Origin: Candidatus Omnitrophota bacterium | GTDB lineage: Bacteria > Omnitrophota > Gorgyraeia > Gorgyraeales > Gorgyraeaceae | Length of the DNA: 64,000 bases | Direction: 5' to 3' | Assembly (NCBI GenBank): GCA_042571405.1 | Contig: JBHPHU010000001.1 | Span: forward strand, 9,298 to 73,297 | Shown here: positions 45,753 through 62,701 of the stretch, one piece after another | Position numbering within the stretch: the stretch's first letter is position 1 | How the letters are laid out: the number at the start of each line of letters is the position of its first letter | Notes under the pieces: generated by a model | Database searches by the model: none | Told to the model about the DNA's origin: nothing | What the model saw: the letters and a program-made list of their open reading frames with translations, nothing else | Program-made: the position numbers and the translations under genes

Positions 45753-45787
45753 TTCGGTAAGCTCAGTGCAAGCTTTTTTGGAGGAGT

Positions 45788-46347: not shown

Positions 46348-46456
46348 CTCCTTATCTGAATATTTTTTATTATATGTCCGCTACATGCTGAATGTCAAGG
46401 CTTATAAAAAATAAGCCCTCTACACCAAAAGTTTGGTGAGAGCGCTTACCGATATG

Positions 46457-46497
46457 TGGCTCCCCCCCCCCTATATGACGCATTTAGCAACTGGTTG
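46457..46497 (-). repeat. tRNA-3'-half-like boundary element, copy e (contains a G10 run)
   Basis: Minus sense: caaccagttgctaaatgcgtcatatag-G10-agcca, followed by the terminator at 46401-46447. Confidence 0.65.
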
Positions 46498-46539
46498 TGG
46501 CAGGATTTAGCTCTATAAATAAGGTACTCTAAGAATATT

Positions 46540-46908
46540 TTACCCTATGAACTTTCTTACTTTACTCAATAATTCCTCTGGCTCAAACGGTTTCATTATA
46601 CAATTATCCGCGCCCATTTCTTTTATCTTCTCAGGAAGTTTGGAGCGAATGGCACTGGCAGTAAACAAAATAATGGGAATATGTTTAAATTTGTCATCAG
46701 ATTTTAGCTTTTTACAAAGTTCATCCCCCTGCATTTTGGGTAAGAGTAAATCCAGTAATATTAAATCACAAACATCATTTTGCAGAAAGGCTATCGCCCC
46801 CTCTGCGTCAACTGCAGATATAATTTCATACCCTGAATGCTTTAATCTCATTGTTGCAACATCCATTATATCCGGCTCATCATCAACAATAAGTATTTTT
46901 TTTGCCAT
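46540..46908 (-). CDS. response regulator receiver protein
   Basis: KILIVDDEPD, LILLDLLLP, receiver-only domain. Start MAKKIL at 46908. Confidence 0.85.
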   Translation of the reverse strand: MAKKILIVDDEPDIMDVATMRLKHSGYEIISAVDAEGAIAFLQNDVCDLILLDLLLPKMQGDELCKKLKSDDKFKHIPIILFTASAIRSKLPEKIKEMGADNCIMKPFEPEELLSKVRKFIG

Positions 46909-46909
46909 A

Positions 46910-48118: not shown

Positions 48119-49055
48119 CCTGCTTTCGGCTTTTCCTCAAGCTCTTTTAACTTCTTCTCTAATTCTTCCATCTTCAACTCCCTATCTACGGAAAATTTAC
48201 TGAACCGCTCTAAGTCCTGCATCTTCTCGCTTAACTCCTTCTGTATTTTTTTACGCTCGGAGATATCGCTAATGTTACATTGGACAACTTTTGCCTTGTT
48301 GACTAAAAAAACTTCAGAGTTCAATGCCGGGCCTTTTTTGGTTTTTATTGGTGTGTCTTTGTAATGTATTACACCTTCTCTTTCTAATCTAAACATCATC
48401 TCTCGAAAGGCTTTCTCATTTTTAATCACTCCTAAGTCCCAGAGCTTCTTTTTCAAAAACTCCTCTTTGGAATAACCTAGCAATTTCTGGGCTATTTCAT
48501 TAGCATTAAGGACGGTGGCTTCGATTTTGTGAATAAGCAATAATACATTATGCGATGTCTCAAAAGCCCTGTGATAGCGCTCTTCGGACTCCTCCAATTC
48601 TTTCTGTAAATTCTTACGTTCGGTTATGTCTTCAATAGCCAGTAAGATTAACTCTTCTTCTGTTGCTGTTGCAGTAACTCCTTTCACTATTATTGATGCT
48701 ACTTGCCCAGGGATGCGCAACTGACAGACATTTAGGCTCATTATTCTCTGTCCAATTTTCTCAAATTTATGGGCTACTTCATAATTGTTCACAACTTTTT
48801 TTTTGGTAAGACTTCTTTTAATAGTTTGATCAGCTCAGGTACATTCCATTGCTTATCATCTAAATCATAGAAAAACTGGCCTATTGTATCTTGTTTTTTA
48901 GCCTTAAAAGTGTTATAGAAAGCTTCGTTAGCAGAAATAACCCGCAATTTTTTATCCAACACTAAAAACGGCTCTCTTAGAGTAGAGATAATGCGATTGC
49001 CATAATCTAAGGCTGCTTTAATTTCTAACTCTTTACCCTGGTTTTTATCTTTCAT
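48115..49055 (-). pseudogene. PAS sensor protein split by a frameshift in an A9 run (or slippage-dependent gene)
   Basis: ORFs 48789-49055 and 48115-48792 together reconstitute one PAS domain matching the N-terminus of 49673-51277. They are separated by the run at 48796-48804. One extra A restores ...LPKKKVVNNYEV... Confidence 0.6.
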
Positions 49056-49101
49056 TTTTCAATCCCTCCTTTTTTTATGTCCTTATTCTTTTACGGATTT
49101 T

Positions 49102-49479
49102 CTAAAGAGTTTCTTCATTTAATAATCCCTCCACTTTATGTATGAATTCTGTGGGATGGAATGGCTTTACTATAACGTCTTTTACTCCAAGTACTAAGGC
49201 ATCATCTTTCATCTTTTCATTTTTTGCTTCAGTAACAATGATAGCGGGAATATCTTTTAGCCTGTCATCGTTTCTGACTCTTGACAATAGCTCGCAGCCG
49301 TCCATCACAGGCATCATCAGATCTACAACTAGCACGTCAAACTTTTCTTTTTTGAGTACGCTAAGGGCTTCTTTGCCGTTAGCAACAACTTTCACCGCAT
49401 ACCCTTTAAACCGCAGAGCCAGGTTTACGATCTTTATGGCCATTGTCGAATCATCCGCTATTAATATTCTCTTACTCAT
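49102..49479 (-). CDS. response regulator receiver protein
   Basis: ILIADDS, VLVVDLMMP, KP motifs, 125 aa. Confidence 0.85.
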   Translation of the reverse strand: MSKRILIADDSTMAIKIVNLALRFKGYAVKVVANGKEALSVLKKEKFDVLVVDLMMPVMDGCELLSRVRNDDRLKDIPAIIVTEAKNEKMKDDALVLGVKDVIVKPFHPTEFIHKVEGLLNEETL

Positions 49480-49672
49480 TGAATATACCTATCTTTTCAA
49501 TGACATTAACAGTGCCGAATCTATTGTCATTACATTCTCTCATAATACATAGAGTAATAATGATAAACGTTTTCTTGCTTCAAATCGAAGTATATGTATT
49601 TTTATTTAATGTGACAATGAGGAAATAACAGGTAGGTAATGGGTATGATAAATACCTACTAAGGCTTTTCTT

Positions 49673-51277
49673 CTAAAGACTTTGTAAGAAAGAAGTTAGA
49701 TTAATATTCTTTTTAGCGAGGCCGAGTTTTTTACGAATATTCCTGCGGTGTTTATCGGTTGTCTGGGAGGAAATATTCAAAAGATTTGAGATCTCCTTGG
49801 TCGTCAGGCCTGACTTGACTATATTGCAAATCTCGATCTCTTTAGGCGTAAGTTTATTTTTTTGTTCTATCAGTCTATGACCAAACGAACCAATCAATGC
49901 CTTTAGACTACTTTCGAGTAAATCAAAATATTTACGTGAAACTCCGCCCTTCATCTTGATCCTCTTTAAGATAGGCATGATTACATCATCTACATTTATA
50001 ATAATATCATCTTTTAGCCTGTTTTTTTCGATCTCGATCTCTTTTATGATTTCCTGAAAAGCAATATTTTTATCTGATAGAAGCTTTTTTTCCTTTTCCA
50101 ATTCCGAGTAAGCTTTTCTCAGATCCTCTTCGGCGTTCTTGCGCTTTGTGATATCAATGGCATATGAATTTATATATCCGCTTTCAATCACAGGAACTAG
50201 GTCAAACAAAAACACTCTTCCGCTAAGTTCTGCTTCTACTCGTTGTCTCTTCTTAGAATCATAAACGTTTTTGATCATCTTGATCCATTTTTCAGGTATC
50301 TTATTTCCTATTTTTGTTCTATCTTCCAAAATTAGTTCTCTACTAGCGGGGTTGGCATATAATAATATGCCATCCTTTGAAACCCTGTATACTGGATTTG
50401 AATTTTCTTCCGGGAATCTGGCGAGGGCTCGAATCTCTTTCTCTGTCTTCTTACGTTCGGTGATGTCAACATTGACTTCTGCTACCAACCATTCGCCTTT
50501 TTCATTCTGAAAAGGGATGGTGGTAACTTGAACTGGTCTGTTATCCTCCCTTGACAACACCTCTTCGCTCACTATAGGCTTTTTTGTCTTTAGCGCTTTT
50601 TTAACTCCGCAATCTGTGCAAATTTTATTTTTTTCCATAAAGTATTCGTAACACTTTCTTCCTTCATATCCGCCGTAAATCTTCTGCCACTCCGGGTCAA
50701 TATAGACCACATTAAAATCCGAATCTATAATATCCAACCCTGTCTTTGTGACACCTAGGATAAATTCCATGTGTTGTCTTGTTCCCCTCAGGCTATTCTT
50801 CGTCTCCTTGAGATCAGTAATATCCTCAATAGCAAGAAGTATCATCTCCACGCTATCAAGACGGCGGGCATTTAAAAGCATTGATTTTAATCCGATGGTC
50901 TCAAAGTTATGCTCAATCTTGTAGTTCTCAAAACATTTTTTTTTGGGAAGGATGTTCTCCAGAAGATGTCTCAGTTTAGGGATGTCCCACTGCTTATTGC
51001 CCAAATCGTAAATGAAATGCCCTACAGTTTCTTCAGGGTTAACTTTAAAGATCTGATAGAAAGAACGGTTGGCTGAGATTATTTTCAAGTCAGCACCAAG
51101 CACTATTAATGGCTCCCGCACTGTATCTACGATACTTTCGGCATATTCACGTGCTTTCTTTATCACTTGTTCATTCTTCTTGTGCTCAATATCAGTTATC
51201 TCAAATTCAGCTATCTGCTTTTGCAAGAGTTTTATCTCATAAATGAGTTCTTCTTTTGTTTTGTCTTTCTGCGGCAT
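49673..51277 (-). CDS. multi-PAS sensor with C-terminal LuxR-type HTH
   Basis: PAS modules followed by LTPKEIEICNIVKSGLTTKEISNLLNISSQTTDKHRRNIRKKLG. Confidence 0.8.
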   Translation of the reverse strand: MPQKDKTKEELIYEIKLLQKQIAEFEITDIEHKKNEQVIKKAREYAESIVDTVREPLIVLGADLKIISANRSFYQIFKVNPEETVGHFIYDLGNKQWDIPKLRHLLENILPKKKCFENYKIEHNFETIGLKSMLLNARRLDSVEMILLAIEDITDLKETKNSLRGTRQHMEFILGVTKTGLDIIDSDFNVVYIDPEWQKIYGGYEGRKCYEYFMEKNKICTDCGVKKALKTKKPIVSEEVLSREDNRPVQVTTIPFQNEKGEWLVAEVNVDITERKKTEKEIRALARFPEENSNPVYRVSKDGILLYANPASRELILEDRTKIGNKIPEKWIKMIKNVYDSKKRQRVEAELSGRVFLFDLVPVIESGYINSYAIDITKRKNAEEDLRKAYSELEKEKKLLSDKNIAFQEIIKEIEIEKNRLKDDIIINVDDVIMPILKRIKMKGGVSRKYFDLLESSLKALIGSFGHRLIEQKNKLTPKEIEICNIVKSGLTTKEISNLLNISSQTTDKHRRNIRKKLGLAKKNINLTSFLQSL

Positions 51278-51550
51278 AATTCTCTTCCCAAAAAATAAAA
51301 AAACCAAGGCCTGCATATCTGCAATGACTTGGGTTCGTCTTACGAAGCTATCTAAAACAGGCTAATTTTACTTGTTTATATTTCTTATCCAAAAAAACTT
51401 CTTTGGCTAGGTATTTAATTGATATTATACGTTTTTACATACTTAAGTCAACTATAAATTACACTTACAGACTGTCCAGTGTAAGAGATAAGGTCACTAC
51501 ATACGAGAAGGCCCTTTGACTAATAAGTCGAAGGGCCTTCTCGTTTAAAC

Positions 51551-51586
51551 TGGCTCCCTGTATTGGACAGGTTTCGCAAATGGTTA
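51551..51586 (-). repeat. tRNA-3'-half-like boundary element, copy f
   Basis: Minus sense: taaccatttgcgaaacctgtccaatacagggagcca, then the 13-bp hairpin cgagaaggccctt..aagggccttctcg. Confidence 0.7.
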
Positions 51587-51611
51587 TGCCGTGAAGCAAA
51601 AGCTGTCTCTT

Positions 51612-51794
51612 TTAGCGACTGCCTTCCTTACGCTTTGAGAAACATTCCTTACAGTAGACTGGGCGGTCTCCGCTAGGCTTAAAAGGGACTTCACATTCTT
51701 TTTTACACTCTTCGCAAATCGCCTTGTGCATCTCTCTGGGACGTCCAAATCCACTACCACCTTGAAACCCCATGCTTCCTCCTTTATTGTTCAA
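51612..51794 (-). CDS. CxxC-x17-CxxC zinc-ribbon domain protein
   Basis: CEECKKECEVPFKPSGDRPVYCKEC. 60 aa with a Gly-rich N-terminus. Confidence 0.7.
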   Translation of the reverse strand: MNNKGGSMGFQGGSGFGRPREMHKAICEECKKECEVPFKPSGDRPVYCKECFSKRKEGSR

Positions 51795-51940
51795 TTAATC
51801 TGCTAAACACCAATAGTATATTCCAGGCAAAAGCCAATTGCAACATATTTTATCACATAAGGTTAGAATTAGCGCGCGCGAGGAAGCGGAGAAATTATTG
51901 AGCAAAATTGTCTGACTATCTCTATTTAATATACACAATT

Positions 51941-52846
51941 TCATCTATTAAGTATTGTCTTAACAGCCTGCTCAAGCGCAGGATTGAACCGTTCAGGAGA
52001 TTTAAGCATTAGAAAATGGTCCAGCCCGTCCAACTCAATCAACTCAAAATCTTTTATATGTCGTTTGTTAGCCTCAATATCAGTCGGCCAAAGGTCAGCA
52101 TTTACGGCTATAACCGGAATATACAACTCATCAAACAACTTAGCTACATCACCTCTCAGATAATTACCCAATGTTTCATTAATAGCACTGATGGCAACTT
52201 CAGGATCAGCCAAAGACATATCAGAAATAATCCACTCATTAACCTGCAAATTATCCAAACGCAGCATCCCTCCAACAAAACCTCTCATAGCCTGCTTAAA
52301 ATCTTCTCTAAAGGGTGTAACCATCTCCTCAAACTGTTTTTCGCTTAAAGGATATTCCACATTTTGGAAGTCATCAACCACAACTAATCCAATAACCTTA
52401 TCCGGCATCAAAAGGGCCGCCTCTACACTCACAAGAGCCCCCATAGAATGACCGATTAAAATAACTTTGTCTGCTTTAATGCTCTCAACAACAGTCTTCA
52501 CATCCTGGCCAAAAGCTTCAGTTGTGTAGTTCTCTCGTTCACTCCCGGAACGGCCATGTCCAGCCAAATCAAGCAAAATTATACGATATTTCTCCTTAAA
52601 ATAGTTGACCTGCTCCCTCCAGTAAGTAGCGTCACAACTCCATCCATGAACAAACACAAGCACCGGCCCCTTTTGGCCATGCTCGTAGTAGTTAATCTCT
52701 ATGTTATCGTTAGAGATAGCTATTTTACCGACCTCAAAGCTCTGCTGAGTATCACCTTGCTTAACAACCGATAAAAGAGCAATTCCGGCTGTTAAAATCA
52801 TCGTCACTAGAAGTACTAATTTAATAATTTTATTTTGTCTCATCAT
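51941..52846 (-). CDS. alpha/beta hydrolase with signal anchor
   Basis: HGW..(oxyanion) and GHSMG nucleophile elbow, 301 aa. Confidence 0.8.
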   Translation of the reverse strand: MMRQNKIIKLVLLVTMILTAGIALLSVVKQGDTQQSFEVGKIAISNDNIEINYYEHGQKGPVLVFVHGWSCDATYWREQVNYFKEKYRIILLDLAGHGRSGSERENYTTEAFGQDVKTVVESIKADKVILIGHSMGALVSVEAALLMPDKVIGLVVVDDFQNVEYPLSEKQFEEMVTPFREDFKQAMRGFVGGMLRLDNLQVNEWIISDMSLADPEVAISAINETLGNYLRGDVAKLFDELYIPVIAVNADLWPTDIEANKRHIKDFELIELDGLDHFLMLKSPERFNPALEQAVKTILNR

Positions 52847-52940
52847 TTTCTCCTCCTCTATAGATATTAATAATAGGTTATGATTTTACTACAAATAAAA
52901 ACCCGTTACAACTTTAATAATTACAACGGGTTAAAATAAG

Positions 52941-52976
52941 TGGCTCCCCGCATTAGATGAGTTTCGCAACTGGTTA
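52941..52976 (-). repeat. tRNA-3'-half-like boundary element, copy g
   Basis: Minus sense: taaccagttgcgaaactcatctaatgcggggagcca, then the terminator cccgttgtaa..ttgtaacggg plus a T-run (G.U pairs only in minus sense). Confidence 0.75.
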
Positions 52977-53053
52977 TATATAGGAGGAGCTAATAAACTA
53001 CATAAAGAATCAGTAATTGTATCACTAGCGACCAGATAGTAGCTAGTAGAAAT

Positions 53054-54181
53054 CTAGATATAAGTCAAATTTTCATTCACAGCGACTACCAATCTTTTTA
53101 AGCTTAATACTGTATTTACTCCAACAGCATTGGCAAAATCAATAGCAGTATCAACCGGATTTTCAGACTGAGTTATAGCGGCATTTACTAAAACAGAGTT
53201 AAATCCCATTTGCATGGCCCCTCGAGCCTGTGCAGCTGTACCTATGCCACATTCGGCTATCAATGGAATGTCAGGCTTTATCCCCCTAGCCAAAGTCATG
53301 ACTTTCCTTATTAAACCCTTCTCTGCTTTTGTCCCTAATCCTTTACCAGAACCTGGCCGCGTTCCTTCAATGCGCAATGCAACAACTTGGTCAAAGTCCA
53401 GCAATGTTTCCAGCATTTCCCTTGTTATTCCTTTACCTATCAAAGGTAGGATTCTAATATCTTTATTAAGACTGACTAATCGTTTTACAGTAGCGACTAT
53501 TTCGACATTTTTTGTCATTAAATCTGGGCCTCGTATTTCAAGCTTAATGTAGGGGATTTTTGAAAACTTGGCCCATAACCCTACCATTATTATGGCTTCG
53601 TCTTGTGTCTGAACTTTGCTAGTGTTCCCCACTATGATAAATTCCCTCGTTTGGCCTAGCTGCTTCAACTCTTCGTCAACTAATCTCACATGTTCGATCT
53701 GCATCGCCCTGGGAAGCATTGCAATGTTACTTTCCTTGCCTAAGTTACAAAAACCAGAATTCTCCTCAAAATTGGAATTTCGCAACCATTCTTCTGCGTC
53801 TTTTAAAGCAATACTTGATCTCAACTGCTCTATATCTCCTAGTAAAAAAATAAAAAATTGAGATTTAGATTTGATAATAAGATCGCATGCGACTTTTGGC
53901 AAAAGCGTAGCGATAGGGGCATTGTTATCATTATCGGCGCTAAGCAAGTGAGTAATTGCTGTTGGAGCTATTAAAGCATATAACGACTTATTGTTAATAA
54001 TCAACCCATAAGAACCTTGAATACCATCCTTGTTTTGGATTTTTTGGAACAAAAAAGGAACTCGTAAGGAATCATTTGAACTTGGACAAGAATAAACAGT
54101 AGCAATAAACATGGGCACAATAGTTATCACTAATGATATCATTTTTATGTTAAAATTATATATTTTTCTAAATCCCTTCAT
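53054..54181 (-). CDS. exported protein with divergent ThiG-like (thiazole synthase TIM-barrel) C-terminal domain
   Basis: KLEIRGPD...LIAECGIGTAAQARGAMQMGFNSVLVNAAI parallels ThiG IKLEVIGD...VIVDAGIGTPSDAAxAMELGADAVLxNTAIA. The N-terminal about 170 aa are unrelated and begin with a signal peptide. Confidence 0.45.
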   Translation of the reverse strand: MKGFRKIYNFNIKMISLVITIVPMFIATVYSCPSSNDSLRVPFLFQKIQNKDGIQGSYGLIINNKSLYALIAPTAITHLLSADNDNNAPIATLLPKVACDLIIKSKSQFFIFLLGDIEQLRSSIALKDAEEWLRNSNFEENSGFCNLGKESNIAMLPRAMQIEHVRLVDEELKQLGQTREFIIVGNTSKVQTQDEAIIMVGLWAKFSKIPYIKLEIRGPDLMTKNVEIVATVKRLVSLNKDIRILPLIGKGITREMLETLLDFDQVVALRIEGTRPGSGKGLGTKAEKGLIRKVMTLARGIKPDIPLIAECGIGTAAQARGAMQMGFNSVLVNAAITQSENPVDTAIDFANAVGVNTVLSLKRLVVAVNENLTYI

Positions 54182-54254
54182 AATTACCCCAAAAAAATAA
54201 CCTCGTCCTCCTATTAAGGCTACACTGTATCATCAATCTAGTCTGACATTGATA

Positions 54255-54283
54255 ATTATATCACAGAGGTTATCTTTTGACAA
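54255..54283 (-). promoter_or_regulatory. sigma70-type promoter for 53054-54181
   Basis: Minus sense: TTGTCA - 17 nt (ending TGTGA) - TATAAT. Confidence 0.45.
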
Positions 54284-54390
54284 GAAATTCTGATGTACAA
54301 TCCGATGTCATATCGACAAAAAAATAACCTGCCAAAAAATGACAGGTTATTTTAATCGTAACTTATTGATAATAAATAAGTTACAAGTAG

Positions 54391-54412
54391 TGGCTCCCTG
54401 GGATGGACGATG
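54391..54412 (-). repeat. tRNA-3'-half-like boundary element, copy h (3' part only)
   Basis: Minus sense: catcgtccatcccagggagcca. It is followed by the two-hairpin module at 54325-54384. Confidence 0.6.
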
Positions 54413-54466
54413 TTGATAGCGCTGGAGAATTTAACTCGTTTCTGCAAGTATATAATAAATCTACTA

Positions 54467-55630
54467 CTATATTTTTAAAATATACCCTGTTGTTCTTCCT
54501 CTTCCAATTTTTTGGATAACTCCTATCTCAAGAAGCCGATTAAAATCCTTACGTGCTGTTTCATCAGAACATTGAGCAAGTTTACAATATTTCTTGGTTG
54601 TCATTTTCTCAGAATGTTCAAGCATCCACTTGAGCGCTTTTATCTGTTTCTTGTCAAGCTCAGCTTGGACCTTTTGACTTAGAATATCTCGGATACCTCT
54701 GACGTTTGTTTCTTTTTCGATTTCAACTTGAACATCTTTCAATTGCTCAGCAAGAGCCTTCAGGTAATAAAGGATAAAAAATGTTGCGTCATTGCCATGA
54801 ACTTCTGCATTTTGTATCGCTCTATAATATTCGCCACGATGATGATCAAAATAATCTGAAGGTGAAAGAAAATTAATAAATTGATAATCTTGGTTCATCA
54901 GATACAAATTTGATAAAGCTCTAGCTAATCTACCGTTACCATCATCAAAAGGATGTACATGCACAAAATATAGGTGTACTAGCGATGCCTTGATCAACGG
55001 ATGAGTCTCATAAACCATATTTACCCACTGAACGTAGGAATCCATCATTTGCACGACTTTAGATGCTGGTGGACCTTCATAAACAACTTGTCCTTGACCG
55101 TTAACAACATATATGGGCCCTTTACGGTACTTCCCGACAGTAATGGGCTTTTCCTTGTGAGTATTTTTGACAAGAATCTTGTGTAATTCGCAGATCATGT
55201 TATGTCTAAAAGGCTGGTTCCTTTTACTGCGGATGTATCCTAATGCCTCCCTATTATTGGCTATCATTTGAAGGCTTTCATCTCCATAGTCTTCTTTAGA
55301 AGGTCTGTTTAGACAAAGCAGTGCTTCTTCCAATGACGTTACAGCCCCTTCAATATGGCTGGAATAATAAGCTTCTTTTTTTTCAATTTCTGATTCTAAT
55401 CTATTTAGAAACTTTTTTGGAAGCTTAAGCGATGCCAAAAAACCCCTGTTTCTTTCTATTTCTGAGATCAGGTTTAGAAGTTCGGAAGGCAAAACAAACC
55501 AAAATGGTTTGTCCTTTTTATCAAAAAGCTCCAGCGAATTTGCTTTGCGATAGCGCTCTTTCTCGATCTCACGCCACTTTGAGATACTATATTTAGCTAC
55601 AATTTTGTGTTTTTCTGGATAATTTATCAT
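54467..55630 (-). CDS. Fic family protein with C-terminal winged-helix domain
   Basis: HPFDDGNGRLAR Fic motif. The C-terminal IGVIQKIGRGRTTGYILK is wHTH-like. Confidence 0.85.
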   Translation of the reverse strand: MINYPEKHKIVAKYSISKWREIEKERYRKANSLELFDKKDKPFWFVLPSELLNLISEIERNRGFLASLKLPKKFLNRLESEIEKKEAYYSSHIEGAVTSLEEALLCLNRPSKEDYGDESLQMIANNREALGYIRSKRNQPFRHNMICELHKILVKNTHKEKPITVGKYRKGPIYVVNGQGQVVYEGPPASKVVQMMDSYVQWVNMVYETHPLIKASLVHLYFVHVHPFDDGNGRLARALSNLYLMNQDYQFINFLSPSDYFDHHRGEYYRAIQNAEVHGNDATFFILYYLKALAEQLKDVQVEIEKETNVRGIRDILSQKVQAELDKKQIKALKWMLEHSEKMTTKKYCKLAQCSDETARKDFNRLLEIGVIQKIGRGRTTGYILKI

Positions 55631-55842
55631 AATAAAATCACCAACTATTCGCCAATAGTATGCCTTATCTTTTACTGTTTGTCAAGTATAATCGCCAATA
55701 AATTGCCAATTATTCGCCAAGCAGAAAAACTTAATGCCATCTACTTTCGACTTATGAATCTTTTTCAGATAAAAAAATAACCTGCCAAAAAATGACAGGT
55801 TATTTTAGTCGTAACTTATTTAAAATAAATAAGTTAAAGAAG

Positions 55843-56069
55843 TGGCTCCCCCGCGAGGACTCCGGCCTTCGGCCTAGAACCTGTCGCTCATTTGCATTCG
55901 CTCCCCAAAGGGGCTCTCCTTCGACTCTGCTCAGGATGGTTCAAGGGATGGTGAGCCTGTCGAACCATGCCCCTATGGCGTTCCTCGCTTCGCTCGTCAC
56001 TGTTACCCCGAAAGCGTGGGGAAAATTTTTCCCCACACCCCTTTGGTTCTCGTCCTCGCGGGGGAGCCA
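55843..56069. other. 227-nt GC-rich element bracketed by 18-bp perfect inverted copies of the tRNA-Asn 3' end
   Basis: tggctcccccgcgaggac at 55843-55860 is the reverse complement of 56052-56069. 55843-55862 is 20/20 identical to the tRNA 3' end at 59066-59085. The interior shares tcgcttcgctcgt with the tRNA intron. Confidence 0.65.
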
Positions 56070-56117
56070 AATTTGACACAAAAAAAGACACCAGGCAAAA
56101 ATGCCTGGTGTCAAATT

Positions 56118-56147
56118 TGGCTCCCCCAAGACTACGAGTTTCGCAAC
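56118..56147 (-). repeat. tRNA-3'-half-like boundary element, copy i
   Basis: Minus sense: gttgcgaaactcgtagtcttgggggagcca, followed by the terminator gacaccaggca-tttt-tgcctggtgtc plus T7. Confidence 0.65.
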
Positions 56148-56312
56148 TTTTTGGATGAGTTTAGGAATTATTGTTTGAGCAAGGAAGTAGATAAGCTATT
56201 AGCAATTATGACTTAAAAATAGCTATTTTTTCTTAGTTTCCATATATTCCACAACTTGCAAGAGAAAAGAACATCCACCGGCTAAGCCGGTGGATGTTTA
56301 CTAATATGGCCT

Positions 56313-56840
56313 TTATTTCTTAAATTCTTTCGATGCGCAGTTCATAGAAGATGAGCGAAAAGTAATTTTTTTGATTGGCATCTTGTCTTTAAGAAGCTCG
56401 TATAAGAGTTCACACCAATTCTCACAAGTAGTAACTTTTTTGCTAACAACTATTCTGTATTCTGGATACGACCAAGCAAGTGGGTGGTCTATCTTTTTAA
56501 GAGGAACGCAATGCTCTGGGTCGTTAGTAATGTTTGCCTTTTTATATACCTCAAGCATCGGCTCAAGAAGAGGGTCGCCTTCCTGCAATATTGTTGCGTG
56601 GTGAAAATGGTCACAAACTTCCCATGCTTTTTTGAACCCATCTTTACAAGCATGTGCAAATCCAGTTACCGGGTCTACGGTATCTTCGAGTTCAATCGTT
56701 ACAAGGCCTGAATGACCATGAAGGTGCTTTGCTTCGCGCGGCCAATTCATAAACCTATGTGCATACTGAAAATCAAGTTTTACTATTGATGTATACTTAT
56801 CTTTTGACATGATAGTTTCCTCCTTTTGGTTAATGTCCAT
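56313..56840 (-). CDS. 6-pyruvoyl-tetrahydropterin synthase/QueD-family protein
   Basis: FQYAHRF...HLHGHSGLVTIELE resembles the PTPS zinc-binding His pattern. Confidence 0.5.
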   Translation of the reverse strand: MDINQKEETIMSKDKYTSIVKLDFQYAHRFMNWPREAKHLHGHSGLVTIELEDTVDPVTGFAHACKDGFKKAWEVCDHFHHATILQEGDPLLEPMLEVYKKANITNDPEHCVPLKKIDHPLAWSYPEYRIVVSKKVTTCENWCELLYELLKDKMPIKKITFRSSSMNCASKEFKK

Positions 56841-56948
56841 ATTTTTATATTATTTACTGCATGCCGCTAGTTACGCTTTATTTTCTAAACTAACCCCCTT
56901 TCGTAATATCTACTAATAGTAATTATTCCTATTAGTAGGTCAAAAAAC

Positions 56949-57380
56949 TTACTTCTTACACTTACCGCAGATACCCTCCAATACAACTTTTTTATTAAGC
57001 ACTGTCAACTTATTCTTAATGTAACTAGGTATTTCGATTTCATCATATGCTTTATTATGAAAATCTATTATTTTATGACACTTTACGCATTGGAAATGGT
57101 GATGATTGTCTATATCCGGGTCAAATCTTTTTGGCTTTCCATAGCCTTCAACTACTTTAATAATTCCTAAATCCGCAAAGGAAAGCACGGTTCTATTGAC
57201 AGTGTCTAATGAAATATGAGGAAACTTTTTTCTGACCCTTTGATAAATAAGGTCTGCGGAAGGATGGTCAGAAGCACCAAGTAACTCTTGATATATAGCA
57301 GTTCTCTGTGGTGTAATCTTTAGATTATTTTCCTGACACTTATTTACAAACAAGTTTAATGACTCGGTTTTCTTATTCAT
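56949..57380 (-). CDS. Fur family transcriptional regulator
   Basis: wHTH N-terminus, HHHFQCVKC...CGKC double CxxC, 143 aa. Confidence 0.85.
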   Translation of the reverse strand: MNKKTESLNLFVNKCQENNLKITPQRTAIYQELLGASDHPSADLIYQRVRKKFPHISLDTVNRTVLSFADLGIIKVVEGYGKPKRFDPDIDNHHHFQCVKCHKIIDFHNKAYDEIEIPSYIKNKLTVLNKKVVLEGICGKCKK

Positions 57381-57500
57381 ACTAACTACTATATAGGATT
57401 AACTACTATTTGTCAAGCCATGTTTTAAAAAAGTTCGATAATAAAAATTGGGTTAAAGAAAAACCCACTGCAACTTATTTAATTGCAGTGGGTTATATAA

Positions 57501-57525
57501 TGGCTCCCCGGGCAGGACTCGAACC
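57501..57525 (-). repeat. tRNA gene fragment (T-loop to CCA), att-like remnant
   Basis: Minus sense ggttcgagtcctgcccggggagcca, compared with the real tRNA ggttcgagtcctcgcgggggagcca. There is no 5' half. Confidence 0.7.
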
Positions 57526-57636
57526 AAACTCTTAATTACTCTTAACTATACTTAACTGTATGTCGATGTTCTTAACCTCGAACTATTCTCTAAGTTATCT
57601 CTATGTTTATTCTAGTAAAATTTTTCTCCTTTAAGC

Positions 57637-57685
57637 TTGACTTTGTAATATAAATAGGTTACAATTGTAATACAAAGAGGTTACA
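57637..57685 (+). promoter_or_regulatory. sigma70-type promoter with a 21-nt direct repeat (putative operator) for the MNT/HEPN pair
   Basis: TTGACT - 17 nt - TACAAT. ttgtaatataaataggttaca (57643-63) and ttgtaatacaaagaggttaca (57665-85) are direct repeats. Confidence 0.45.
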
Positions 57686-57689
57686 GACT

Positions 57690-58262
57690 ATGGATATAAC
57701 AAGAATCTTCAAATCTAAGGCCAGGCAGGCAATATTTCGTCTGTATTTCACCAATCCGGAAAAAAGTTTTTATCTTAGGGAATTAGAGCGTGAGCTTGGC
57801 ACTCCTGTTTCTATATTGCGCAAGGAACTCATATCTTTAGAAAAGGAGGGTTTTTTCTCCTCTTCTAGACATGGAAACCTCTTATATTACTCCCTTAACA
57901 AGGAATATACGCTTTATAACGAAATCAAAGCCATTGTGTTTAAAACCGTCGGCATACAAGGGTCTCTTTCGAAGGCACTTCTGGATATAAAAGGCATTGA
58001 GGCGGCTTTCATATATGGATCATACGCTAAAAACGCGAGTAACGCCAAAAGCGACATTGATCTTTTTATTTTGGGTAATCCTGACGAAGATATAATCGTG
58101 AAAAAAATAAACAGTCTTGAGAAAAGCTTAAATCGTGAAATAAACTATAGTATATATACAAAAACTAACTTCGGGAAAAAGAAAAAACAAAAAGATTCAT
58201 TTATTGAAGATGTTTTAAAAAATAGGAAGATTTTTCTGATAGGAGGTAAAAATGACCTTTGA
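57690..58262 (+). CDS. nucleotidyltransferase (MNT-type) with N-terminal winged-helix domain
   Basis: GSYAKN..SDIDLFILG minimal NTase motif. The N-terminal part is ArsR-like wHTH. Confidence 0.75.
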   Translation: MDITRIFKSKARQAIFRLYFTNPEKSFYLRELERELGTPVSILRKELISLEKEGFFSSSRHGNLLYYSLNKEYTLYNEIKAIVFKTVGIQGSLSKALLDIKGIEAAFIYGSYAKNASNAKSDIDLFILGNPDEDIIVKKINSLEKSLNREINYSIYTKTNFGKKKKQKDSFIEDVLKNRKIFLIGGKNDL

Positions 58263-58716
58263 TAGCTTCATAAAAGAATATATAAAACGCGGGCTTATTA
58301 AAAAACAGCCAAAAAATTTAAAGACTATTGAGAACCTTATTTCCAGATCCTATAAAGAAATCAAGGCTGCCGAGGCGAATATAAAGATCGATGAAGGAAT
58401 TGCCTTTACTATTGCATATACAGCGATGCTTCACGCAGGCAGGGCTATTATGCTATTTAAAGGTTATAGACCCCACGATGGCTATCAGCATAAAACAGTT
58501 GTCGATTTTGCGTCAATTGTGCTTGGTGAACATTACAAAACTCTAACACAACGTTTTGACAAGATGCGAAGAAAAAGAAATATATTTACCTACGAAGTCA
58601 GTATTTCGATTTCAGAAGAAGAAGTAAAAAATGCGCTTAAGTCTGCTAAAGATTTCATAAAAGCCGTCCGTGAGTTAATCGAAAAAGAAGACCCCCAACA
58701 TAAATTCAGATTCTAG
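58252..58716 (+). CDS. HEPN domain protein (partner of the MNT)
   Basis: Overlaps the MNT stop. All-helical 154 aa with a FDKMRRKRNIFTYE HEPN-type segment. Confidence 0.7.
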   Translation: MTFDSFIKEYIKRGLIKKQPKNLKTIENLISRSYKEIKAAEANIKIDEGIAFTIAYTAMLHAGRAIMLFKGYRPHDGYQHKTVVDFASIVLGEHYKTLTQRFDKMRRKRNIFTYEVSISISEEEVKNALKSAKDFIKAVRELIEKEDPQHKFRF

Positions 58717-58995
58717 CGTCTTATCCGCTCGCGTAACTAGAGATAAAGAGAGATAATACAGAGATAAAATCCTAGTTTATCTCTGTATTCAGGAAAATAT
58801 ATATTGGATATACTTCGAAATAATCGCCAAAATAGCCCGTTACTAGAAAGTGTTAACTAAGTGGCGATTTAGAGATAAAGAGATAAGGTGGGAGTGAAAT
58901 CCCTAAAGAAGATCTTTTAGAGATAATCGAATAAATTAAGAACAAAATACCGTCGGAAAACATAGCGCCTAAGTGTTTGACGCGTTGTCAGATAC

Positions 58996-59025
58996 AAAAA
59001 TAGCCTGGCAAATTCTACCAGGCTA
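58996..59025 (-). terminator. intrinsic terminator of tRNA-Asn
   Basis: Minus sense: tagcctgg-tagaatttg-ccaggcta followed by a T-run. Confidence 0.6.
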
Positions 59026-59065
59026 TTTTGTTGTAACTCATTATATCTCAATAAGTTACGATATA

Positions 59066-59396
59066 TGGCTCCCCCGCGAGGACTCGAACCTCGGACAACG
59101 TGGTTACACTCTGACTCCGATTACTCGGAGAGTCGGACTATACCTTTGCCATAGCCATTTCTGGCTTTAGGCAGCGAGTGTCTAGTCTCTGCACCTTTCC
59201 GTCTTCGCCAAGCAACTTTCGTGCTTGGCTTCGCCGGACTTGGCTCAGGATTGACCCAATTGCTTGGGCTTTCCCTGAATTTACTCGCTTTTTCACTCCA
59301 GAGTTTCCTCTGGAGGCTGCTAACTTTTGCGAAGTTTTTGTGCACTCGCTTCGCTCGTGCAACAGCCACGCGCTCTACCAACTGAGCTACAGGGGA
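59066..59396 (-). tRNA. tRNA-Asn(GUU) interrupted by a group I intron; CCA encoded
   Basis: Exons 59362-59396 and 59066-59106 join to TCCCCTGTAGCTCAGTTGGTAGAGCGCGTGGCTGTTAACCACGTTGTCCGAGGTTCGAGTCCTCGCGGGGGAGCCA. That is 76 nt with a clean cloverleaf, and closely resembles E. coli tRNA-Asn. Confidence 0.9.
59107..59361 (-). mobile_element. group I intron (IC3-like) in the anticodon loop
   Basis: AAUCCUGAGCCAAG and GGUGCAGAGACUAGAC...CCUAAAGCC...GGCUAUGG cores match the cyanobacterial tRNA-Leu and Azoarcus tRNA-Ile introns. IGS GCAGCC pairs with the exon end GGCUGU (U.G at the splice site). The terminal residue is G. Confidence 0.85.
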
Positions 59397-59426: not shown

Positions 59427-61466
59427 TTATGCTACTTTACAATTAGCCTCGCACATACGTTCCAGGCGGGCCCAGTTTTCATCAATATCTTTTTGGATTT
59501 CTTCCAGGATATGTTTATTTTCTTCCTTAAAGAGATGCTTGAATCTGCCCTGGGGTTTTAAGAATTCCACGACGGGCTTACGTTGTTTTGGCTTGTATGT
59601 AAATTTCCAATTTCCATTTTCTATTTCGATCAAAGGCCAGAAACCTGTTTCAACTGCTAGTTTTGATATCTCGATCGTCTTTTCCTGCGGGAATCTCCAG
59701 CCTCTGTGACACATGGAGATCACATTTAAGAATGCCGGGCCATCTACCTTAAATGCCTTTTCTGCTTTTGTTACAAGGTCATTCCAGCTAGACGCAGAAG
59801 CTTGAGCTACATATGGGATCTTGTGAGCAGCTACTATTGTTGTGAGATCTTTTCTAAATTGCTGTTTACCAGAACTTGCCTTTCCCGCAGGCGCAGTTGT
59901 TGTCGACGCGCCTTTAGGCGTTGCACCGGAACGTTGAATCCCGGTATTGTGAACCACTATGCCATCAGCAATAAAATTATGTTCACCTTCTACCCTTAGA
60001 TCTAATGTCGGCTCTTTACCTACTAACTTTATACTTCCTACCTTTTCCATTTCGAAATATTCGTTACCTATTAAAAAATTCTGATACTTATATTGATTAG
60101 GGTATTTTTTAACATTCCATTTTTCCCTGTCACTGAAGCATACATATCCATACTTCGAATCCTTCAATAACCTCCTGTTTACACATTTTGCTCCTCTTTC
60201 CTTGACCTGCCAATGGATCTTTCCTACTCTTTTACCCATTGTCTGTAAAAATAGTCTTAGGCTCTTGAGTAAATCTTCACTTACTGAAACATAACGCCAA
60301 CTATTTCCGCATTTATACCCGTCTGAAAGCATAAGCCCTTCTACTAGCGCTTCTTTTTGTTCTATTGGCAAAGCAAATGCCCAGCCAGGAATGGTTTTAT
60401 TCTTCGCGCCAATACCAACACCCAAACTCTTTATGAAATTCCCCAAATTTACAGAATTTGCATAAACGTACTCTTCATCAACAGAATTTATCTTGCTTCC
60501 GAAAATCTTCGCGTGAATCTTTACAAGCTCTTTCCTGCCAACTGTATTTTCAGGAAGCGCAAACCCCACTTCTCCTCTTTTTTCTCTTATCCAGCCATCA
60601 CCTATATATAATCCCAGATACTTCATGAGGTCTGGACTAGAGGAACGCGGTATATTGATATCGTTTAACTTATTTACCTTATAATCGCCTTTCTTAACCT
60701 TCCTAAAATCAAATATAGCTGACTTAGAGTATCCATTTAACCCTTTTAAAGTTACTACCTCATCTCCTATCTTTACATCTTCCAGTTTCTTCCACGCAAG
60801 CCTGTTGGTCTTGCCTGTTCCGCCTCTCTTTAAAACTAAAAACGGGTGATTCGAAGTAGCTTTTATAGAATGGTGCAAAGTATTAAGCTCGTAAACATCT
60901 TTTACCCCATTATCAAAGACGCCTGAGCATTCTTTTAAAACCAATTGATGCGTCTTCTGGTCAAAGGCATATACTTTATCGCCTATTTTTATTTCAGTAA
61001 TTTTTTTAAGTCCCTTTTCCGTCATTATCATAGATGAAAGGCTCAAGCAGTTCATATAAGCTTCGTTATTATAGCAGACATATACAAAATTATGGCCGCG
61101 TTCTAGCGCGCCTGAAAGCGATTGAAGTCCTATGTCAAAGGTCCCTCCATCGCCGCCGAATGCAACGAACTTGATTTCCTTTTTGATCTTTCCTTTTTTC
61201 TTTAATGCTCGATAAGCTGTTTCAACGCCGCTTATCGTCGCCGCCACATTTTCAAATGCATTATGGATAAATGGCGTTTTCCATGCAGTATACGGGTAAA
61301 TAGTAGTTGCTACTTCGAGACATCCTGTAGACGCTCCAACTACTACAGGATCTTTTGTCCCCAGTAAGACCTGACGCACTACAATAGACGCGCCGCATCC
61401 TGCACAAAGCCTGTGTCCGCCTGATAAACGTTCCGGTTGTTTCGAAAGTTCTTTTATGTTGGCCAT
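59427..61466 (-). CDS. porB: pyruvate/2-oxoacid:ferredoxin oxidoreductase beta (TPP-binding) subunit, containing an intein
   Basis: CAGCG N-terminus, GDG-x25-NN TPP motif, and extein junction NEAYMN | TGIQRSG. Start at MANIKEL (61466) behind a GAGAGGG RBS. Confidence 0.9.
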   Translation of the reverse strand: MANIKELSKQPERLSGGHRLCAGCGASIVVRQVLLGTKDPVVVGASTGCLEVATTIYPYTAWKTPFIHNAFENVAATISGVETAYRALKKKGKIKKEIKFVAFGGDGGTFDIGLQSLSGALERGHNFVYVCYNNEAYMNCLSLSSMIMTEKGLKKITEIKIGDKVYAFDQKTHQLVLKECSGVFDNGVKDVYELNTLHHSIKATSNHPFLVLKRGGTGKTNRLAWKKLEDVKIGDEVVTLKGLNGYSKSAIFDFRKVKKGDYKVNKLNDINIPRSSSPDLMKYLGLYIGDGWIREKRGEVGFALPENTVGRKELVKIHAKIFGSKINSVDEEYVYANSVNLGNFIKSLGVGIGAKNKTIPGWAFALPIEQKEALVEGLMLSDGYKCGNSWRYVSVSEDLLKSLRLFLQTMGKRVGKIHWQVKERGAKCVNRRLLKDSKYGYVCFSDREKWNVKKYPNQYKYQNFLIGNEYFEMEKVGSIKLVGKEPTLDLRVEGEHNFIADGIVVHNTGIQRSGATPKGASTTTAPAGKASSGKQQFRKDLTTIVAAHKIPYVAQASASSWNDLVTKAEKAFKVDGPAFLNVISMCHRGWRFPQEKTIEISKLAVETGFWPLIEIENGNWKFTYKPKQRKPVVEFLKPQGRFKHLFKEENKHILEEIQKDIDENWARLERMCEANCKVA
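59946..61049 (-). mobile_element. 368-aa intein with LAGLIDADG homing-endonuclease domain
   Basis: Begins CLSLSSMIMTEKG (block A), with TSNHPF (block B). LGLYIGDGWI and VEGLMLSDGY are the LAGLIDADG motifs. Ends NFIADGIVVHN followed by Thr+1. Confidence 0.9.
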
Positions 61467-61479
61467 GTTTAACCCTCTC

Positions 61480-61514
61480 AACCTCGTAGGTTGCCTACGG
61501 CAACCTACGAGGTT
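61480..61514. repeat. GC-rich palindromic element, family 2, in the porA-porB intergenic spacer
   Basis: aacctcgtaggttgc ctacg gcaacctacgaggtt gives 15-bp perfect arms and shares ACCTCGTAGGT with the copy at 4359-4411. Confidence 0.85.
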
Positions 61515-61519
61515 AAATA

Positions 61520-62701
61520 TCACTCCCTCGAGCCTAAATAGTTTAAGGGTGTTTTTACCTTACCTGCTTTTAATGTATCCTGTAACTCTACGTAAACCTT
61601 ACTTATATCTGACGGAAAGATATCTCTTCCGCCAAGACCATATATGTAATTTGTGATCAGCGGTTTTATACCTGAATCATATAATGCTGCCTTTATCTCT
61701 GTATAAAGCGGCCCGCCTTCTGCTGAAAATGATTCGCTCCTGTCAAGGATAGCGACTGATTTTACATTCTTTAAGGCGTTTACAATTCTCTCCTTTGGAA
61801 ACGGCCTGAAAATCCTTGGCCTTAAAAGTCCCGCCTTTATGCCTTTTTGTCTTAATTCATCTATGGTAAACTTTACTGTTCCAGCTGTTGAAGACATCGC
61901 AACTATTGCAATTTCAGCGTCTTCTAATTTATATGTTTCAATAAAATCGTATTTTTTGCCAAATGTCTTTTCAAATTCATTTAATACTTCAGGAATCGCG
62001 CTCAAGGCATCCCTCATTGCTTCTCCTTGCTGGCGTTTGTGCTCAAAATAATAGTCCTGTAGGTCGAGCGGCCCGTATGTTGCAGGATTATCAACATCCA
62101 GCAAAGGATTTTCGATCTTATATTCACCGACAAAATCCTTAACTTTTTTATCATCAAGCATATCTACGCCCTCTACACCATGAGACGTTATAAAACCATC
62201 CTGGCATACCATTACAGGGAGAAGTATTTTTTTATGCTCTGCGATCCTTACCGCAAGTACTGTATTTTCATATACCTCCTGGGCATTTTCGCAGTAGATC
62301 TGTATCCAGCCTGAATCGCGTGCGCCCATTGTATCTGAATGGTCACAATGTATATTTATCGGGCCCGAAAGTGCGCGATTTACAACAGGCATTACTATAG
62401 GTAGCCTGGTTGAAGCAGCAATATATACGATCTCCCACATGAGCGCAAGACCATTCGCGGATGTCGCTGTCATAGTACGCGCCCCTGCTGCTGCCGCGCC
62501 TACGCACGCGCTCATTGCGCTATGCTCTGACTCAACATGTATCACCTCTGTTGACACCTGGCCATTCGCAACATAATTCGCAAAGCTCATAACAATCGCT
62601 GTCTGCGGCGTAATAGGATATGCAGCCACTACATCCGGCTCTATCTGCTTCATTGCATACGCAACTGCCTGATCGCCTGTTAATGGAATCTTCTTGCTCA
62701 T
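61520..62701 (-). CDS. porA: pyruvate/2-oxoacid:ferredoxin oxidoreductase alpha subunit
   Basis: 393 aa. Typical N-terminal GDQAVAYAMKQ..VVAAYPITPQT. Confidence 0.9.
   Translation of the reverse strand: MSKKIPLTGDQAVAYAMKQIEPDVVAAYPITPQTAIVMSFANYVANGQVSTEVIHVESEHSAMSACVGAAAAGARTMTATSANGLALMWEIVYIAASTRLPIVMPVVNRALSGPINIHCDHSDTMGARDSGWIQIYCENAQEVYENTVLAVRIAEHKKILLPVMVCQDGFITSHGVEGVDMLDDKKVKDFVGEYKIENPLLDVDNPATYGPLDLQDYYFEHKRQQGEAMRDALSAIPEVLNEFEKTFGKKYDFIETYKLEDAEIAIVAMSSTAGTVKFTIDELRQKGIKAGLLRPRIFRPFPKERIVNALKNVKSVAILDRSESFSAEGGPLYTEIKAALYDSGIKPLITNYIYGLGGRDIFPSDISKVYVELQDTLKAGKVKTPLNYLGSRE

Follow-up and report, generated by a model that had tools for sequence, protein, structure and literature searches.

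The 3' ends of tRNA genes are classic landing pads of bacterial mobile DNA, and the users of these sites that are known to us are kilobase-sized and carry an integrase of their own. The present work concerns a much smaller occupant, found in a 64,000-nucleotide stretch of chromosomal DNA, part of a Candidatus Omnitrophota contig (JBHPHU010000001.1; hereafter the window, whose coordinates are used throughout). The element, a GC-rich segment at 55843-56070, is read on the minus strand, which is the strand of the tRNA-Asn gene of the window. It belongs to a family whose members measure at most 260 nt, bear no gene, adopt an elaborate fold and follow immediately 3' of the genes for at least 10 tRNAs in uncultured bacteria, with copies of the local T-arm in both direct and inverted orientation. 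Taken as a whole, the family points to a mobile element that homes to tRNA genes, or else to an RNA linked to them, and not to a decayed tRNA.

Among described systems, the tRNA-targeting islands (those with a tyrosine integrase and T-loop sublocation, their CIME-like derivatives that lack an integrase and form tandem accretion arrays, and tycheposon-type islands) offer a likeness. The element has in common with them a direct repeat that begins in the T-loop and extends to the 3' end of the tRNA, an intact tRNA, a position 3' of the gene on the tRNA strand, arrays with partial tRNA repeats and a presence that varies between relatives. Unlike these islands, it spans only 120-260 nt, has neither integrase nor open reading frame (ORF), possesses a covarying multi-helix core, bears an inverted T-arm at its other end and a hairpin within its T-loop copy, and occurs as one family at 10 or more tRNAs. 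Of the hallmarks of tRNA-targeting integrative elements, the direct repeat and the intact tRNA were found, and an encoded or adjacent recombinase was not.

Two groups of elements acting through folded single-stranded DNA (ssDNA) also invite comparison. Integron cassettes with their attC sites and the CTX-phi attP resemble the element in forming an imperfect one-strand palindrome with an extrahelical element and in including ORF-less cassettes, and integron cassette arrays often hold toxin-antitoxin genes. The element differs from integrons in having no IntI and no R/L core boxes, in residing at a tRNA 3' end and in an inter-arm region that is conserved and complex, not variable. The IS91 family and its ORF-less derivatives target GTTC or GTCC, both of which are contained in GGTTCGAGTCC; these are the target tetranucleotides of IS801, IS1294 and IS1294b, and the family is further characterized by subterminal palindromes, ssDNA circles, and one-ended transposition with imprecise termination that yields over-length copies (bioRxiv 10.1101/2025.01.24.634351). 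The element has subterminal hairpins and an inferred GTTC|G junction; unlike IS91, it shows a direct repeat where IS91 makes no target duplication, its tetranucleotides are inverted, it has no similarity to oriIS or terIS, and no HUH transposase was seen.

A third group comprises RNAs. Transfer-messenger RNA (tmRNA), YrlA, viral 3' tRNA-like structures and mascRNA all combine a T-arm-like module with an acceptor 3' strand reaching the discriminator or CCA, as the element does, and a transcript of the element could likewise be cut by tRNA 3'-processing enzymes. It departs from them in its interrupted T-loop, its usually unpaired acceptor, the lack of any D-arm or anticodon analogue and of an Rsr or SmpB context, and the absence of matches to ARAGORN or Rfam models. 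GOLLD, ROOL and Clostridiales-2 are, like the element, structured GC-rich non-coding sequences near tRNAs, and structured ssDNA motifs can pass for RNAs (PMC5737381). The element is 3-5 times smaller than GOLLD and ROOL, which do not carry a copy of a tRNA 3' end.

An element family at tRNA 3' ends

The terminal repeats of the window copy are exact. The sequence TGGCTCCCCCGCGAGGAC occurs without mismatch at 55843-55860 (plus strand), 56052-56069 (minus) and 59066-59083 (plus), with a 3-mismatch copy at 57501; 0.01 matches were expected by chance, and none of 100 shuffles reached 4. The 18-bp perfect inverted repeat described in an earlier note on this DNA was recovered by exact-match search and by repeat search (18 nt, 100% identity, 191 nt separating the arms at 55843-55860 and 56052-56069). 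The same holds for the other features that the note had listed, namely that the left copy is a direct repeat of the tRNA 3' end (Table 1), that the right copy runs on as a T-arm-like ggttctcgtcc (56045-56055) compared with ggttcgagtcc in the tRNA, and that the interior is GC-rich and hairpin-rich. GC content is 57% in the interior against 35% in each flank, 35-40% in the surrounding region and 40% in the window, and both strands fold far more stably than shuffled sequence (z -5.5 and -7.3). A second palindrome exists as well, with 31-nt arms (56049-56079 and 56108-56138, 87% match) and centred, over 56049-56138, on a minus-strand intrinsic terminator (T1, 56112..56087); the first arm of the version noted earlier lies at 56060-56079, one base away from the reported 56061-56080.

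The window copy is not isolated. BLAST of 80 porB-linked loci revealed the element in only one of them, the closest relative L001. There it lies on the tRNA strand directly behind a terminator and the tRNA-Asn gene, which again contains the intron, and it lacks 53 nt (window 55916-55968). The arms of the L001 copy are those of its own tRNA-Asn allele (TGGCTCCCCGGGCAGGGC / GTCCTGCCCGGGGAGCCA); compared with the window, three pairs have changed in a compensatory manner, and identity over the core is 95.5%; the L001 and L114 copies are 95-98% identical to the window copy. A metagenome scan with a pattern of the 3' block in which the hairpin stem was left free (GGTTCTAGNNNGAANNNCGGAGTCC) returned 37 contigs. 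A covariance model of 154 positions, R1, built from 17 copies, then gave 41 genuine matches in 39 independent contigs, with 35-165 bits for full-length copies (148 bits for the window copy) and 25-55 bits for cut, truncated or degenerate ones. A scan of GTDB genomes with an inverted-repeat pattern gave 0 matches.

Copies range from 120 to 260 nt and come in a short form (about 120 nt) and a long form (140-260 nt) that have both ends in common. Read on the tRNA strand, an intact tRNA is followed by a spacer of about 4-76 nt, often with an intrinsic terminator, and then by left arm, core, right arm, the hairpin P3 and the tail. The left arm is an inverted T-arm whose generic sequence, GGAC(G/T)(A/C)GAACC, is present in all copies, with an inverted acceptor strand added in some lineages; in L001 it is the complement of that contig's own tRNA-Asn allele. 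The core contains four or five hairpins, arranged as an A-rich stretch with GGGG, H1, GGGGUGACAG, H2, H3 and H4 (GGAGC-loop-GCGAC), and the loops of H3 and H4 accept large insertions (in the window, L102 and L081). That of the window, in the H3 loop at 55916-55968 (53 nt), is absent from L001 and L114, and no second copy of it was found. The right arm reads N-GGUUC-UA, the base 5' of its GG tracking, in most copies, local tRNA position 51 and/or the base after the left-arm GAACC; there follow P3, of 4 bp with a GAA loop, and G-GAGUCC, and the element ends with the remainder of the local tRNA 3' end, up to the discriminator or an encoded CCA. Pairing of the two arms closes the core and re-creates a duplex T-arm copy. 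The parts of the window copy are collected in Table 1.

Table 1. Parts of the element in the window, its immediate surroundings and the reference tRNA gene
Feature	Position	Strand	Remarks
Tail, copy of tRNA-Asn positions 57-76 (GAGTCCTCGCGGGGGAGCCA)	55843..55862	-	element 3' end; 20/20 identity with 59066-59085
P3, 14-nt insertion (UAGGCCGAAGGCCG), 4-bp hairpin with GAA loop	55863..55876	-	splits T-loop-like GGUUC...GAGUCC
Right arm GGUUCU, like tRNA positions 52-56; P2 3' strand	55876..55881	-	pairs with 56045-56050; helix 2, 94% paired
H4, GGAGC-loop-GCGAC stem with tandem G.A	55883..55904	-	helix 6; Watson-Crick positions covary, G.A conserved
H3, stem CCAUAGGGGC / GCCCCUUUGG	55905..55978	-	helix 5; 90% paired, double changes in 9/10 pairs
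H2, two tandem G.A pairs and GAA loop	55981..55999	-	helix 4; holds the 14-mer shared with the intron
H1, hairpin GUGGGGAAA...UUUCCCCAC	56016..56036	-	helix 3; 95% paired, 9/9 pairs with compensatory changes
Left arm, inverted tRNA-Asn 52-76	56045..56069	-	2 mismatches (positions 57-58); 5' strands of P2 and P1
Full match of covariance model R1	55857..56055	-	148.4 bits, E 1.6e-33, model positions 1-154/154; sole copy in window
T1, intrinsic-terminator hairpin	56087..56112	-	11 pairs and T7 run; between upstream tail fragment and left arm
Upstream array boundary AGTTGCGAAACTC-N9-GGGGGAGCCA	56118..56148	-	tRNA-Asn tail fragment closing the neighbouring cassette
Native-type tRNA-Asn 3' flank, palindrome and terminator T2	55774..55836	-	after the element tail
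Reference tRNA-Asn(GUU) with group I intron (59106-59360)	59066..59396	-	source sequence of arms and tail

The association with tRNA genes extends over at least 10 isoacceptors (Lys-UUU, Gln-UUG, Gln-CUG, Leu-UAG, Arg-UCU, Arg-UCG, Ala-UGC, Val-GAC, Val-CAC and Asn-GUU), the Ala-UGC case lying within an rRNA operon (L098). In 16 loci the tail is identical to the adjoining tRNA over 15-21 nt (36 nt or more in L113), counted from G57, and the identity stops at the mature tRNA 3' end. The T-loop half GAGTCC was found in 18 of 20 distinct associated tails as opposed to 7 of 59 other tRNAs of the same loci, a bias partly conditioned on the search pattern. Beyond the tail comes native tRNA flank: the sequence that directly follows tRNA-Asn in L016 is found after the element tail in L103, and the palindrome-plus-terminator flank of L010, L011, L012, L015 and L070 appears after the tail both in the window and in L001 and L114. 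In the window this flank, 55774-55836, is homologous both to that of the real tRNA-Asn gene and to those of the same five relatives.

These observations bear directly on the origin that the earlier note had proposed, namely an inverted att scar or a paralog, rearranged or decayed, of the tRNA-Asn gene with its intron. In that gene, tRNA-Asn(GUU) (59396..59066, minus strand), U36 is followed by a group I intron of 255 nt (Rfam, 81 bits), and ARAGORN misses the gene because the intron splits it at this point, so that 0 tRNA genes were reported across the window. The Rfam tRNA model RF00005 gave a weak match at 59305-59396 only and none within 55820-56090, whereas the group I model RF00028 matched the window only at 59114-59341 (81 bits) and the element not at all, even at E up to 10. 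With no cloverleaf detected by ARAGORN or the Rfam tRNA model, a tRNA or tRNA pseudogene was rejected, as were a group I intron, for want of a match in the element, and tmRNA, which neither ARAGORN nor Rfam reported. The tRNA content of the element is limited to positions 52-76, present twice in opposite orientations. Alignment with MAFFT and BLAST against 59066-59396 found similarity in the terminal repeats, one 14-mer and one 9-mer only.

The two internal matches deserve closer attention. The shared tcgcttcgctcgt is real and extends to a 14-mer, ACGAGCGAAGCGAG (55984-55997 and 59345-59358), which is beyond chance expectation, just 3 of 2000 shuffles sharing 13 bases or more. It constitutes a self-contained tandem-G.A hairpin, C-GA-GC-GAA-GC-GA-G with a GAA loop, and the same motif is found in H2 and H4 of many family members and in the 5' hairpin of the tRNA-Asn introns of L005, L011, L021 and L071; we read it as a common stable hairpin, and its identity in element and intron is not taken as shared descent. 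The reported resemblance of the ccatcctgagcag segment to the intron holds for a 9-mer, ATCCTGAGC, shared with the conserved P7 region, and for nothing beyond it, and the segment sits inside the 53-nt window-specific insertion that the closest relatives lack. An origin as a paralog or inverted scar, which would explain the tRNA-Asn terminal repeats and could invoke both the 14-mer and a decayed inverted copy in L014, is therefore very improbable and largely refuted: tRNA and group I signals and any alignment past the repeats are missing, what is shared amounts to a hairpin of the family and an insertion specific to the lineage, and the same core stands beside nine other isoacceptors that have no intron.

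Other parts of the earlier reading fared unevenly. The inverted repeat and its "degraded T-arm" are not an inversion scar, being the constant left arm of a family found beside at least 10 different tRNAs. The description as a hairpin RNA derived from the tRNA is valid for the arms and fails for the conserved core. The terminal repeats are true copies of the tRNA-Asn 3' end that behave like attachment or target repeats, the element being located inside an array of tRNA-Asn tail repeats here and directly 3' of the tRNA in its relatives L001 and L114. An assembly artefact, that is, a chimeric or fold-back join, might be suspected in a repeat-rich region where contigs often end at tRNA-Asn (L008, L012, L071). 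Its probability is negligible, because the independent assemblies L001 and L114 share the same inverted architecture, which recurs in 39 independent contigs from many samples.

The family is apparently uncatalogued, which is not to say that it is proven new. Rfam 15 was searched with the window, with L001 and another 14 loci, and with the elements of the window and L084 in isolation; no match reached the gathering threshold, and only Clostridiales-2 recurred as a weak match on the 5' half (21-26 bits, best 26.2, against a gathering score of 58.6); the motif is not discussed in the main text of the paper defining Clostridiales-2. BLAST against 50,697 phage and 72,556 plasmid records gave no match, nor did two patterns in IMG/VR, and no description of such an element was found in the literature. 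The copies are ORF-less, as judged from indels that do not come in threes and from hairpin covariation, and an all-against-all ORF BLAST of 38 loci and the window for a conserved neighbour protein returned only GlmU synteny, ABC ATPases and element-overlapping ORFs.

Weak R1 matches (E 0.05-0.4) were also observed in L052 (10558-10702) and L054 (10587-10730), in a G-rich structured region including GGGGGTCAGCGGAGCAAAGCGCAGCGCCGAGGGGGG that lies about 50 nt 3' of porB in Aminicenantes and Clostridiales metagenome-assembled genomes (MAGs). This region may be distantly related to the core, or it may be a leader of other origin.

Selection on the fold and the strand it acts on

The fold of the element is under selection as a structured single strand on the tRNA-sense strand, with tests that fit RNA and ssDNA alike. 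In the R1 alignment, 85.8% of pair cells are standard compared with 71.0% in column shuffles, and double changes affect 42 of 46 pairs, amounting to 216 double-change cells versus 68 in shuffles, counts that lean towards the model because the alignment was fitted to it. Neither the pairing nor the double-change measure was reached by any of 500 shuffles, and pairing falls to 31-53% when partner columns are slid by 1-3 positions.

Individual helices behave in the same way. The stem of P3 (helix 7, paired in 99%) entered the search pattern as free Ns and still exhibits GCC/GGC, CGC/GCG and CCC/GGG swaps along with several U.G wobbles, so that GC/CG exchange in this stem is seen across the family. 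In H2 and H4 the tandem G.A pairs are fixed in position and the flanking Watson-Crick pairs covary. Outside these well-paired helices, the P1 extension varies from 0 to 14 bp, and most copies leave the acceptor part of the tail unpaired.

Assignment of the fold to the tRNA-sense strand (the minus strand of the window) follows from three observations: G.U pairs outnumber A.C pairs (47 versus 23), the 136 conserved G.A cells would turn into mismatched pyrimidines on the opposite strand, and in 32 of 33 copies the sense strand folds more stably, the mean difference being 9.6 kcal/mol. Hairpins of the GCGAAGC or C-GAA-G type and Y-GA-R tandem G.A pairs are very stable in DNA too, a property that counts in favour of a folded DNA site.

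Homing element, tRNA-linked RNA or folded DNA site

The explanation favoured here, to which we give an even chance, is that the element is a non-autonomous mobile (integrative) element that homes to tRNA genes, at their T-loop and 3' end. Insertion would occur at or next to C56|G57, leaving the tRNA intact and duplicating the sequence from position 57 to the 3' end. Pairing of the arms would re-create a duplex T-arm closing the core, and a hypothetical trans-acting enzyme would recognise the folded single strand, which could be either an ssDNA intermediate or RNA made in one transcript with the tRNA. The window copy would represent one unit of an accretion array after tRNA-Asn, two later insertions having moved it to about 3.2 kb from the gene.

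Several signs of mobility are consistent with such homing. The core of the window copy is 84% identical to that of L113 and 79% identical to that of L096, both of which are in Gln contexts. Tandem, partial or 1.x-mer copies are seen in L115, L090, L108, L096, L113, L094 and L110, a 3' remnant in L088, and another copy that begins at the contig end in L019. Both occupied and empty tRNA-Asn sites exist among relatives, these being different species and not isogenic strains.

A decayed, core-only copy was also noted at 10857-11098 (minus strand) of L014, inverted and placed directly after tRNA-Asn and a palindromic hairpin, AAATTTTGCCG...CGGCAAAATTT. This copy shows that the element does undergo inversion or rearrangement.

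A number of results speak against homing. Pfam searches of 44 ORFs of the 64-kb window revealed no integrase, transposase, HUH or reverse transcriptase (RT) gene, and such genes were not recurrent near the other copies. Neither excised or circular forms nor an empty site in a strictly isogenic background were seen, and the tails of L083, L102 and L112 have diverged from the adjacent tRNA. About one third of the copies, that of the window included, are preceded by a strong terminator and no promoter-like site, and sense transcription of the window copy is doubtful because of this arrangement. The breadth of the family and its T-loop bias are partly conditioned, since the P3 loop and GAGTCC were constants of the pattern used for discovery. 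Finally, simple integration does not account for the inverted copy of the local tail in the left arm; fold-back synthesis or intrastrand conversion in the palindrome could possibly regenerate the resident allele in both direct and inverted form.

The homing explanation can be carried further, into a tentative and rather unlikely proposal: an ORF-less class that homes to the universal T-loop, in which the 100-200-nt fold, as guide-like or catalytic RNA or as ssDNA substrate, would be the active component, the arms would pair with both T-arm strands, and the tRNA 3' end would be copied or carried so that the host gene survives. To our knowledge, none of the integrase-borne islands, miniature inverted-repeat transposable elements (MITEs), integron cassettes or known RNA-guided transposons works by T-arm pairing of this kind.

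Known classes of small mobile or mobile-associated sequences were considered and rejected. A MITE is at odds with the lineage-specific nature of the 18-bp inverted repeat, most copies sharing only GGAC...GTCC and GAACC...GGTTC, and the sequences flanking the repeat are not duplicated (AAATT versus CTTCT). A retron or other RT-associated non-coding RNA (ncRNA) was dismissed as the neighbours are Fic and PTPS-like genes and no RT recurs near other copies. Retrons, the delocalised CRISPR RNA of CRISPR-associated transposons, TnpB/IscB guide RNAs, casposons, external guide sequences and T-box-like RNAs were set aside in general, since no partner gene is adjacent and their defining ends or repeats are missing.

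The conserved fold could also belong to a stable RNA. In this alternative, which we hold to be somewhat unlikely, the element would be a host-beneficial structured ncRNA residing on tRNA transcription units, transcribed together with the tRNA and freed by tRNA-processing enzymes through mimicry of the T-arm and acceptor, and its copies would be old duplications. The covariation of the sense strand and the conserved tandem G.A motifs are what such an RNA would display, and many copies follow a tRNA by only 0-30 nt with no terminator in between, including one in an rRNA operon after tRNA-Ala (L098), others behind tRNA clusters (L101, L108) and others in the gap between tRNA-Gln and glmU (L084, L085, L113). 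In addition, the tail stops precisely at the discriminator or CCA, and the right arm retains a T-loop-like UUCUA. A beneficial RNA is, on the other hand, difficult to reconcile with tandem, partial, truncated and inverted copies and with a presence that varies between relatives, the 64-kb window having a single copy and most related genomes none at tRNA-Asn. The variable P1 extension and mostly unpaired acceptor part of the tail also count against it, and a terminator, with no promoter, stands ahead of the element in the window and, in spacers analogous to T1, in L001, L083, L081, L089, L092 and L109.

Alternatively, the RNA would have no role at all and the element would be a DNA-only, folded ssDNA site for recombination or replication (similar to attC, to the CTX-phi attP or to an IS91-like origin or terminus), forming part of the machinery that builds the array. 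We regard this as quite unlikely. It gains from the cassette array with its tail repeats, from arms that form a duplex T-arm with an extrahelical hairpin, from the long palindromes made by spacer, tail and left arm, from an inferred GTTC|G junction that fits the targets of IS801, IS1294 and IS1294b, and from the 1.x-mers of L096 and L113. It loses from the failure to find an IntI, Xer-type or HUH gene and from the absence of attC R/L boxes, the arms GAGAACC / GGTTCTA not fitting RYYYAAC / GTTRRRY, on which grounds, together with the missing integrase, an integron attC was rejected. The core is conserved in sequence and multi-helix structure, unlike the variable loops of attC, and the gene cassettes of the array have a different, AT-rich boundary devoid of this core. 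The GTTC motifs of the arms are moreover inverted, in contrast to the direct ones of IS801 and IS1294, and a direct repeat is present that IS91 would not make.

If the family is mobile, it would involve either unrecognised trans-acting machinery or an RNA or ssDNA mechanism that reads the universal T-loop, which would be of relevance to mobile-element biology as well as to programmable insertion. If it is a stable RNA, it would represent a new, widespread class of tRNA-linked ncRNA in uncultured phyla such as Omnitrophota. On either reading, R1 allows annotators to flag recurrent "tRNA fragments" and contig breaks, and it provides a handle on the assembly of tRNA-Asn-linked cassette arrays in Omnitrophota.

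The tRNA-Asn gene and its cassette array

The element is one unit of an array, placed between an upstream boundary (56118-56148) and a native-type flank (55774-55836). The array occupies a low-GC stretch of 43.6-59.1 kb (43623-59074), downstream of porDAB and tRNA-Asn, in which 11 copies of the tRNA-Asn tail (...GGGGAGCCA) are found, all on the tRNA strand. Most of them have a boundary, AACCAGTTGCGAAACTC-N9, before them and a palindrome and terminator after them. The cassettes between the tails hold Fic, ThiG-like, PTPS/QueD-like plus Fur, MNT plus HEPN and PAS/His-kinase genes, among others, and an array of the same kind follows tRNA-Asn in L003 (10603-19256) and is present in L088 and L095. 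The arrangement looks integron-like, or like tandem-accreted islands, yet no integrase is present.

Read antisense, the array boundary gives a conserved putative peptide, WLPxLDEFRNWLYxEEAxKLYKE, with synonymous-looking variation. A search of 5.8 billion proteins for it returned three short ORFs ending in the motif and no full-length homologue. The idea that the boundary might be what is left of a split gene at its 3' end was not adopted, and the peptide was not taken to indicate an integrase.

One cassette of the array, that of MNT/HEPN, is closed by a 25-nt fragment (57501-57525, minus strand; positions 52-76) of another tRNA-Asn allele (GGTTCGAGTCCTGCCCGGGGAGCCA, as in L001 and L003). At least one cassette therefore derives from, or has recombined with, a lineage with a different tRNA-Asn.

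The intron of the window tRNA-Asn is related to the trnL type (it contains AATCCTGAGCCAAGTCC) and is polymorphic among related Omnitrophota, being present in L005, L011, L013, L015 and L007 and absent from L008, L012, L019 and L066. In L001, a free-standing GIY-YIG nuclease ORF of 81 aa (2333-2649; Pfam 3.9e-18) is flanked by a 5' fragment of tRNA-Asn on one side and by the intact gene with its intron on the other, and may be the remnant of a homing endonuclease tied to the intron or to local rearrangements.

Next to tRNA-Asn, the porB gene (59427-61523, minus strand) encodes the beta subunit of pyruvate:ferredoxin oxidoreductase (698 aa) with an intein in its thiamine pyrophosphate-binding domain (Pfam Intein_splicing, Hint). 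The C-extein of PorB is 97% identical to that of the MAG contig L001 and 86-92% identical to those of many Omnitrophota MAGs and single-amplified genomes. Elsewhere in the window, a pocket of 32-34% GC at 28090-30200 contains a second Fic-domain gene (28090-28986) and two adjoining ORFs with no Pfam match, and may be another small island, located away from the tRNA.

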